Part shown: positions 1,949 to 2,275 of the stretch, in pieces
Layout: every line of letters begins with the position of its first letter
Numbering within the stretch: the stretch's first letter is position 1
Source: Escherichia coli
GTDB taxonomy: Bacteria; Pseudomonadota; Gammaproteobacteria; Enterobacterales; Enterobacteriaceae
NCBI RefSeq assembly: GCF_016903815.1
Contig: NZ_CP069973.1
Reading direction: 5' to 3' (one strand)
Length of the DNA stretch: 64,000 nucleotides
Position numbers and translations under genes: made by a program
The notes under the pieces: generated by a model
What the model was told of the DNA's origin: nothing
The model's database searches: none
What the model saw: only the letters and a program-made list of their open reading frames with translations

Positions 1949-2275
1949 ATGTTCAGGTCACTGTTTCTGGCGGCCGCCCTGATGGCATTTACCCCGCTTG
2001 CGGCAAACGCAGGTGAAATCACCCTACTGCCATCAATCAAATTACAAATTGGCGATCGCGATCATTACGGTAATTACTGGGACGGTGGTCACTGGCGCGA
2101 CCGTGACTACTGGCATCGCAATTATGAATGGCGTAAGAACCGCTGGTGGCGTCATGATAATGGCTACCATCGTGGCTGGGATAAGCGTAAAGCGTATGAG
2201 CGTGGCTATCGTGAAGGCTGGCGCGATCGTGACGATCATCGCGGAAAAGGCCGCGGACATGGGCATCGCCATTAA
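1949..2275 (+). CDS. ypeC: small secreted low-complexity protein YpeC (DUF2502)
   Basis: 108-aa ORF with N-terminal signal peptide ([21 protein letters not shown]) followed by W/R/D/H/G/Y-rich repeats; position between yfeO and mntH. Confidence 0.85.

Follow-up and report, generated by a model that had tools for sequence, protein, structure and literature searches.

Asr is rich in lysine, alanine and histidine and contains no tryptophan. It resembles YpeC, the protein of Escherichia coli considered here, in being small, basic, of low complexity, Sec-exported and stress-induced, and it is reported to be intrinsically disordered and to act through its net charge (PMC10746267). However, Asr shows no sequence relationship to YpeC, for which a folded core is predicted. 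The inducers differ as well: acid in the case of Asr, but Rcs and MarA/SoxS in that of ypeC, which responds to acid only weakly. A different likeness is found in the His-rich metal-binding tracts of periplasmic and membrane metal proteins, for example the (HG)n and (HX)n loops of zinc-binding proteins and zinc transporters, which resemble the C-terminal tail of YpeC (HGHRH in E. coli, HGHGHGHH in most orthologues). Such (HX)n tracts bind cations. Here too there is no homology, and the tract of YpeC is short and unanchored.

The E. coli paralogue YaaX (b0005) shares 62% identity with YpeC over the first 65 residues, a stretch that takes in the complete core signature together with YEWR.NRW. Likewise, it carries a signal peptide with an AxA site (the counterpart cleavage motif is AQA/AE), ends in a His-rich tail (HHKKAPHDHHGGHGPGKHHR) and belongs, as does ypeC, to the Rcs regulon. 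However, YaaX is shorter (98 amino acids), continues after the core with the proline-rich linker PPPPPR, lacks the YpeC-specific segment beginning HRGWDK and is encoded elsewhere, between thrC and yaaA. The further DUF2502 proteins of Enterobacterales and Betaproteobacteria, including Serratia SMDB11_2817, have the signal peptide, the GDRD-x2-G-x-YWDG-x2-WR core and a charged low-complexity tail in common with YpeC, but many of them contain two tandem cores, and their tails differ widely in charge, some being strongly acidic and others strongly basic.

The locus analyzed here is an E. coli gene that is already known and annotated, namely ypeC, a member of DUF2502. The gene, the family and the regulatory context have been described before; the locus is no new kind of system and holds nothing that is surprising to a specialist. 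What the present analysis adds is a two-part architecture, in which a predicted folded family core is followed by a constrained tail, in place of pure low complexity. It further adds a minimal family signature, its tandem duplication and its range, which comprises Enterobacterales and some Betaproteobacteria with CPPGQAKKGNC variants, as well as statistics on the His-rich tail, an anatomy of the promoter and the demotion of a misleading link to mntH.

Gene, reading frame and export signal

The gene was analyzed within a stretch of 64 kb of E. coli DNA, referred to as the window. The elements that define the coding sequence are as follows.

1949..2275, plus strand: ypeC coding sequence (DUF2502), ATG start, 108 codons plus the stop codon TAA at 2273-2275; based on the list of open reading frames, Pfam, RefSeq and selection
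1936..1941, plus strand: Shine-Dalgarno sequence AAGGAG, 7 nt before the ATG of ypeC, read from the sequence and kept in orthologues
1949..2011, plus strand: Sec-type signal peptide, residues 1-21, predicted cleavage ANA/GE, from sequence features

The preliminary description had named the product YpeC, and the name is right. The Pfam model PF10697 (DUF2502) matches with a score of 85.4 bits, above the gathering cut-off of 27 (E=3.1e-24), and residues 23-106 align to positions 1-90 of the 90 positions of the profile, which places YpeC in this family; NCBIfam contains no model matching YpeC. With an 801-nt region around the gene as query, ypeC was found in 5424 of 5426 complete E. coli genomes, where RefSeq labels it as 'DUF2502 domain-containing protein YpeC'. 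Moreover, the peptide quoted in the preliminary description, from D36 to H108, is an exact match to the translation.

Long open reading frames cover ypeC in three other frames as well (1998-2357 on the plus strand, 2037-2288 and 2042-2272 on the minus strand; 76-119 amino acids). They are by-products of the repetitive codon content of ypeC, and they account for the many frameshifted 'YpeC' entries in public databases. Both the overlapping frames and the numerous frameshifted entries could be taken to mean that the annotated low-complexity frame is spurious, or that the true product arises from an overlapping frame. This reading retains practically no probability, and the pattern of substitutions already refutes it. 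Between E. coli and Citrobacter, 5/5/43 substitutions fall on codon positions 1/2/3, with a dN/dS of 0.03. The corresponding figures are 15/16/47 for Klebsiella and 15/12/35 for Cronobacter (dN/dS 0.14 in both cases), and 25/20/57 for Shimwellia, where synonymous sites are saturated and dN/dS is not computable. The excess of third-position changes, together with dN/dS values of 0.03-0.14, thus indicates that the annotated frame is translated and constrained, the low-complexity C-terminal part included. Likewise, the strong and correctly spaced Shine-Dalgarno sequence and the conservation of the signal peptide and of the Pfam family across two proteobacterial classes argue against a spurious frame. 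ypeC is under strong purifying selection.

The N-terminus of YpeC comprises a short basic n-region, a hydrophobic core and the motif A-N-A. Placing the cleavage site after A21 by the -3/-1 rule yields a predicted mature protein of 87 amino acids, and A19, A21 and E23 are invariant across 20 YpeC orthologues. The n-, h- and c-regions and the conserved AxA site support the earlier statement that YpeC carries a clear signal peptide and is secreted. A twin-arginine motif is absent from the N-terminus. We also considered YpeC as a lipoprotein; this was ruled out, the protein having no cysteine and no lipobox (the cleavage region reads LAANA/GE). The mature protein is probably soluble in the periplasm.

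Architecture of YpeC and range of the DUF2502 family

Downstream of the signal peptide, the coding sequence can be divided into the following segments.

2015..2164, plus strand: DUF2502 core module, residues 23-72, predicted by AlphaFold2 to be folded
2048..2113, plus strand: family-wide signature, residues 34-55, the sole segment common to all 88 cluster representatives
2165..2272, plus strand: C-terminal region, residues 73-108, predicted non-globular (pLDDT <50), still constrained (dN/dS 0.03-0.13)
2192..2236, plus strand: YpeC-specific conserved motif, residues 82-96, with positions invariant in 20 orthologues
2237..2272, plus strand: His/Gly/Arg tail, residues 97-108, consistently His-rich, with varying length and sequence

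The extreme W/R/D/H/G/Y-rich, low-complexity composition that had first drawn attention to the protein was confirmed: 71 of the last 72 residues (98.6%) are W, R, D, H, G, Y, N, E or K, and the Shannon entropy is 3.07 bits, as compared with a mean of 3.87. Tryptophan makes up 11.1% versus 1.3% in the long open reading frames of the same window, relative to which H, Y and R are enriched 4.4-fold, 4.5-fold and 3.7-fold, respectively. The mature protein has an isoelectric point of approximately 10, and its net charge rises from approximately +7.6 at pH 7 to +14 at pH 5.5.

The composition had also been taken to suggest an intrinsically disordered periplasmic protein. This holds for residues ~73-108, which are predicted to be non-globular with pLDDT values below 50, but not for residues 23-72, which form a conserved and confidently predicted module. 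For the core alone, AlphaFold2 run on 58 family-wide sequences, a family of limited diversity, returned a mean pLDDT of 88.8 and a pTM of 0.66. With positions counted from E23, strands are predicted at 2-5, 8-10, 37-40 and 43-46, and a helix spans 30-36 in the model. When the mature chain was modelled with 54 sequences, the pLDDT was 87-90 at mature residues 10-45 and below 50 at 50-86. We therefore rejected the candidate reading that the whole of mature YpeC is intrinsically disordered. Instead, the core is predicted to be a compact beta/alpha module of ~50 residues, many of them aromatic or charged. A PDB sequence profile search produced a single chance match (E=8); no relative of the core fold was found among solved structures that would hint at a ligand.

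Conservation extends over both parts of the protein. In 20 orthologues from named enterobacterial genera, which are 69-94% identical to E. coli YpeC, invariant Trp, Tyr, Gly, Asp and Arg residues are distributed along the whole length, a pattern that, judged from the alignment, is unlike a drifting low-complexity region. Within the C-terminal region, A82, G86, Y87, R88, G90, W91 and D93 are invariant. The motif of residues 82-96 to which they belong is exclusive to the YpeC orthologue group and absent from YaaX, and expansions of the units RGWD and KGWY occur in the C-terminal region of the orthologues. An internal repeat in YpeC was considered and rejected: the N-terminal and C-terminal halves share WRDRD alone (E=0.05), so that an ancestral second copy of the core is unproven, and the two 16-nt DNA copies coding for WRDRD (2092-2107 and 2218-2233) are explained by codon preference.

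The signature of the family, located C-terminal to the signal peptide, takes the form [IL]G[DES][RQ][DN]-x2-G-x-YWDG-x2-WR[DES]-x2-WW and is given for YpeC as IGDRD-x2-G-x-YWDG-x2-WRD-x2-WW. Residues 35-55 of YpeC match it downstream of a signal peptide, with YW as the last pair, as compared with WW in most distant members. Among 58 family cores, P6, G13, G19 and W22 are invariant, and conservation is 90% or higher at D16, Y21, D23, G24, W27, R28 and W33 (numbered from E23). DUF2502 is a small family: when 1.84 billion cluster representatives were searched exhaustively with a profile, just 88 matched at E<=1e-3, and a word-indexed search returned 278 proteins. In 20 of the scanned proteins the signature is doubled in tandem. 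A Pfam scan of ten distant members with E values up to 10 detected DUF2502 alone and thus no bridge to another family.

The taxonomic range was mapped by means of a degenerate DNA pattern for the core signature. In the Enterobacterales, the signature is present in Escherichia, Citrobacter, Enterobacter, Klebsiella-type genera, Pantoea, Erwinia, Mixta, Serratia, Rahnella, Hafnia and Brenneria, frequently with two loci per genome. In the Betaproteobacteria, it was found in Dechloromonas, Accumulibacter, Zoogloea, Denitromonas and Chitiniphilus.

The tail was compared across 73 non-frameshifted orthologue-level sequences. In these, the median content of histidine is 25% in the last 20 residues versus 6% elsewhere in the protein, and at least four histidines are present in the last 20 residues of 66 of the 73 sequences as well as of 18 of 30 distant members; the paralogue YaaX has a His tail, too. 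The enrichment of histidine in DUF2502 tails is a compositional and not a positional trait. Betaproteobacterial members lack a His-rich tail and terminate in CPPGQAKKG(N/R)C. The His tail is hence no family-wide requirement, and this, like the ~40% of distant members (12 of 30) with fewer than four histidines in the tail, tells against the explanation that we prefer below. As for net charge, it is conserved in the YpeC orthologue group alone, where the isoelectric point ranges from 7.4 to 10.5, with all 73 orthologue-level sequences above 7.4, whereas across the DUF2502 family the net charge extends from -13 to +11 and 5 of 30 distant members are acidic. Thus, the enrichment of histidine is more general than positive charge, which mildly favors cation binding or titration with pH over a purely polycationic mechanism. 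On the basis of its sequence, the His/Gly/Arg tail makes cation binding plausible. According to the Irving-Williams order, His/Gly tracts prefer Cu, Ni and Zn far above Mn. Neither metal binding nor metal-responsive expression is reported in the literature on ypeC or on yaaX and DUF2502.

Promoter region and published regulation

Upstream of the Shine-Dalgarno sequence, we located a marbox and, by means of upstream alignments, two further candidate elements.

1830..1844, minus strand: marbox (MarA/SoxS/Rob-type) GCATTTTTTGCTAAA, an exact match to the published site; the stop codon of yfeO falls within it
1859..1863, plus strand: TNRGA half-site TAAGA, a possible RcsB half-box
1897..1902, plus strand: putative -10 element TAACAT, conserved in the alignments, with TAATAT in four other genera

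The marbox places ypeC downstream of a site of the kind that characterizes the mar/sox/rob regulon. It is the sole match to GCAYNNNNTGYYAAA within the 64-kb window and is kept in Klebsiella, Shimwellia and Cronobacter. A MarA ChIP-seq peak has been observed at ypeC, and in vitro binding of MarA at GCATTTTTTGCTAAA was scored at the '+++' level (PMC5684230). The same report also cites ypeC as a target of SoxS in E. coli by ChIP-exo (PMC5684230), and in Salmonella a SoxS peak is located at the same site (PMC10268841). Transcriptional activation of ypeC by MarA, SoxS or Rob was not found in the literature, nor is a MarA site reported there at yaaX.

The published response to envelope damage is strong. 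Upon treatment with an inhibitor of LolCDE, and thus of lipoprotein transport, ypeC is upregulated 42- to 60-fold, alongside osmB, bdm, ycfJ and wca genes, among them markers of Rcs (PMC5105897), and where rcsB is disrupted, as in one O157 isolate, the expression of ypeC is 23.7-fold lower (PMC5343319). The paralogue yaaX is part of the regulon defined by overexpression of RcsB (PMC2731931) and is induced by colicin M (PMC3599342). Likewise, the Serratia DUF2502 gene is expressed at a higher level in a gumB mutant, in which Rcs is hyperactive; its promoter was selected from among the genes upregulated there and is one of three that were cloned as reporters of Rcs (PMC8470065). The response to acid is weak, the table value for ypeC being 1.3 in a study of the rapid-acid transcriptome (PMC2270276). 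The gene is also mentioned, weakly or generically, in lists of multi-stress networks and in the shared response of recipient cells to RP4 conjugation.

The full RcsB box has been defined as TN(G/A)GAN4TC(T/C)NA (PMC7913699). The region preceding ypeC in five genera and that preceding yaaX contain no site with at most one mismatch to it, and sites with two mismatches occur at the rate expected by chance (0.97 per 160 nt). At the aligned position of the half-site, the five genera have TAAGA, TCAGA or TCGGA. With no full RcsB box, control of ypeC by Rcs could be indirect or could need a partner; direct control by RcsB is unproven. The putative -10 element implies a transcription start near 1909; the center of the half-site box would then be at about -43.5 and that of the marbox at about -72. 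None of the aligned genera has a good -35 element, as expected for an activator-dependent promoter. A scan for consensus promoters between 1700 and 2500 returned nothing, and no canonical intrinsic terminator was found in the same interval.

Neighborhood and possible functions of YpeC

The genes and repeats around ypeC are arranged as follows.

578-1834, plus strand: yfeO, flanking gene, stop codon at 1832-1834
2300..2411, no strand assigned: REP/BIME elements (2300-2335, 2358-2388 and a partial copy at 2392-2411), inverted and direct repeats between ypeC and mntH
2417-3655, minus strand: mntH, flanking gene, convergent with ypeC
3952-5193, plus strand: nupC, flanking gene beyond mntH

The preliminary description had regarded the position of ypeC next to mntH as suggestive. 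The arrangement of the two genes gives this position no functional weight. Their stop codons are 141 nt apart with the REP elements in the gap, Rfam detects only sub-threshold matches to the REP-derived naRNA4 (2253-2332 and 2357-2438), and the promoter region of mntH lies on the far side, between mntH and nupC. Convergent genes with REP elements between them cannot form an operon or share a promoter. The pair is kept in Klebsiella, Shimwellia and Cronobacter, and also beside a divergent two-repeat homologue. However, wherever it is kept, the whole block ipdC-gpr-ypeC-mntH-nupC is syntenic, as has also been noted in an independent synteny analysis (PMC5770404), and in one Citrobacter a PTS gene follows ypeC in place of mntH. 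Non-orthologous DUF2502 genes are located between an FKBP gene and a flavodoxin gene, between ihfA and btuC, or adjacent to FliL and DUF1684 genes. The neighbors of betaproteobacterial members encode a histidine kinase, a LysR regulator, an IS200-like transposase, an ADP-ribosylglycohydrolase, a DUF3617 protein and a glucose/sorbosone dehydrogenase, with no recurrent theme and no metal genes. Since the pair occurs only inside the syntenic block and the neighbors elsewhere are unrelated, the adjacency of ypeC and mntH reflects inherited gene order and is not functional evidence.

A partnership with MntH in Mn/Fe homeostasis, in which YpeC would for instance hand periplasmic Mn(II) or Fe(II) to MntH, is consequently already disfavored, and we regard it as very improbable. 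The conserved pairing, including that with the divergent two-repeat homologue, and the His-rich tail would fit such a role, but the convergent arrangement with intervening REP elements, the synteny of the entire block with ipdC, gpr and nupC, which leaves the adjacency without a specific signal, and its loss in a Citrobacter speak against it, as does the location of yaaX and other DUF2502 genes away from metal genes. The regulators diverge likewise: mntH is controlled by MntR, Fur and OxyR, whereas the published regulation of ypeC is that of envelope stress through Rcs and of MarA/SoxS and not of metals. Moreover, Mn(II) is poorly bound by His/Gly tracts, given the Irving-Williams order.

The explanation that we prefer, tentatively and with somewhat less than even confidence, is that YpeC acts as a periplasmic effector of envelope stress and as a stoichiometric binder. 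ypeC would be deployed by envelope-stress programs, namely by Rcs and, via the upstream marbox, by MarA/SoxS, and the protein would be exported by the Sec pathway and remain soluble in the periplasm. There, the DUF2502 core would serve as the unit that binds a ligand or a partner. The second part of the protein is a constrained polyampholyte, predicted to be non-globular, which includes the YpeC-specific motif and is followed by the (His/Gly/Arg)n tail; the motif may contribute to binding together with the core. YpeC would be a binder and not an enzyme. The tail could capture divalent transition-metal cations, Zn, Ni or Cu being likelier than Mn, and/or it could turn strongly cationic when the periplasm is acidified. 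In either case, YpeC may help to buffer the stressed envelope. A bolder reading of the same architecture is a rather improbable one: the DUF2502 core would be a previously unrecognized small periplasmic fold that recognizes an envelope polymer or partner, and YpeC and YaaX would represent a new class of Rcs-deployed envelope protectants. With the His-rich tail to which the core is joined in the Enterobacterales, this class would couple binding of the ligand to the capture of transition metals or to periplasmic pH.

Alternatively, YpeC could be an Asr-like, charge-driven protector or chaperone of the periplasm, whose basic, Trp/Arg/Tyr-rich mature chain would adhere to unfolded proteins or to anionic components of the envelope (phospholipid head groups, peptidoglycan, periplasmic glucans, LPS intermediates), with histidines that only tune the net charge with pH and play no role in metal binding. 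The isoelectric point of ~10 of the mature protein and the rise of its charge from +7.6 to +14 between pH 7 and pH 5.5, the isoelectric points above 7.4 in all 73 orthologue-level sequences, the predicted non-globular C-terminal region and the induction by envelope damage are consistent with this idea, for which Asr itself provides a precedent, described as an acid-induced, disordered periplasmic chaperone acting by net charge (PMC10746267). However, it is the enrichment of histidine and not net charge (-13 to +11) that is conserved across DUF2502, half of mature YpeC is a specific, conserved and predicted-folded module rather than a generic polycation, and the acid response of ypeC is weak (value 1.3; PMC2270276); we consider such a mechanism unlikely. 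There is a slim chance that YpeC is a periplasmic feedback modulator of Rcs, which would bind a periplasmic part of this machinery (RcsF or IgaA) and so resemble CpxP in the Cpx system or MgrB with PhoQ. The ypeC transcript ranks with those that depend most strongly on Rcs, the two paralogues of E. coli and the Serratia homologue are under Rcs control, YpeC is small and periplasmic, and the conserved motif in a region predicted to be unstructured is what one would see in a segment that folds on a partner. On the other hand, feedback regulators are usually single-copy and not paralogous, and the family is also present in Betaproteobacteria (Dechloromonas, Zoogloea, Chitiniphilus), whereas to our knowledge the Rcs system is confined to Enterobacterales. 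The probability that is left beyond the effector reading and its four rivals belongs to something else.

ypeC is one of the uncharacterized 'y-genes' of E. coli, with a very strong response to envelope damage that activates Rcs, such as blocked lipoprotein transport or, in the case of the paralogue yaaX, injury of the peptidoglycan. With a bona fide MarA/SoxS site, the gene is a meeting point of two clinically relevant programs of stress and antibiotic tolerance. Knowledge of what YpeC and YaaX do would add a missing piece to the picture of how a damaged envelope is repaired or shielded in enteric bacteria.

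Promoter and leader of ypeC

The genes ipdC and gpr, located between yfeO (or glk) and ypeC in Klebsiella, Citrobacter, Cronobacter and Shimwellia, are absent from E. coli (window 1830-1948, compared with the loci L002, L004, L015 and L016 of other genomes). The ypeC promoter of E. coli therefore adjoins yfeO, with the marbox overlapping the yfeO stop codon. Despite this differing upstream gene content, the promoter together with the leader, approximately 115 nt, is conserved across genera. The following elements are found in this region:

1864-1883 with 1892-1911: inverted repeat of 20 nt, 80% complementary
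1845-1862 with 1925-1942: inverted repeat, the right arm of which spans the Shine-Dalgarno sequence
about 1914-1926: small GCCG...CGGC hairpin, retained in several genera

Whether these repeats and the hairpin are transcribed would depend on the position of the start site.

Variation of the coding region and of the C-terminus

The +1 frame over ypeC is open (window 1998-2357, +), and frameshifts thus give rise to long chimeric products; indeed, numerous database entries named 'YpeC' are frameshift chimeras of this type. One frameshifted allele, present on 10 contigs (L137-L139), lacks a single A in an A-run which in this lineage occupies the place of the CGTAAGAAC of the window (about 2133-2141). 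Its product retains residues 1-63, including the entire core, followed by 72 out-of-frame residues that extend into the REP region.

In addition, the orthologue alignments A1 and A2 reveal short unit expansions in the post-core linker of some genera (window equivalent about 2155-2190): Kosakonia carries RGWHRGWDRGWDKR, Klebsiella has KGWYKGWYKGR, and Cronobacter contains one additional RGWDD. This pattern suggests replication slippage within the repetitive codons.

DUF2502 proteins of Betaproteobacteria, found in Dechloromonas, Accumulibacter, Zoogloea, Denitromonas and Chitiniphilus (loci L029, L039, L043, L045, L066, L069, L071, L091, L092 and L094), are devoid of His-rich tails. Their C-terminal end is a conserved CPPGQAKKG(N/R)C motif, which presumably forms a disulfide loop.

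Convergent neighbours and the ypeC-mntH gap

Both E. coli DUF2502 paralogues are arranged tail-to-tail with a neighbouring gene, ypeC with mntH (window 1949-3655) and yaaX with yaaA (L001 735-1960, corresponding to NC_000913 5234-6459). Both neighbours, mntH and yaaA, are peroxide-stress response genes, and this parallel between the two loci is probably a coincidence.

The convergent gap between ypeC and mntH (window 2276-2416) is filled by REP/BIME copies, which match Rfam naRNA4 only below threshold:

2300-2335: REP/BIME copy
2358-2388: REP/BIME copy
2392-2411: partial REP/BIME copy

Since no canonical intrinsic terminator was detected in this gap, the REP/BIME hairpins probably serve to terminate or stabilise the ypeC and mntH transcripts alike.
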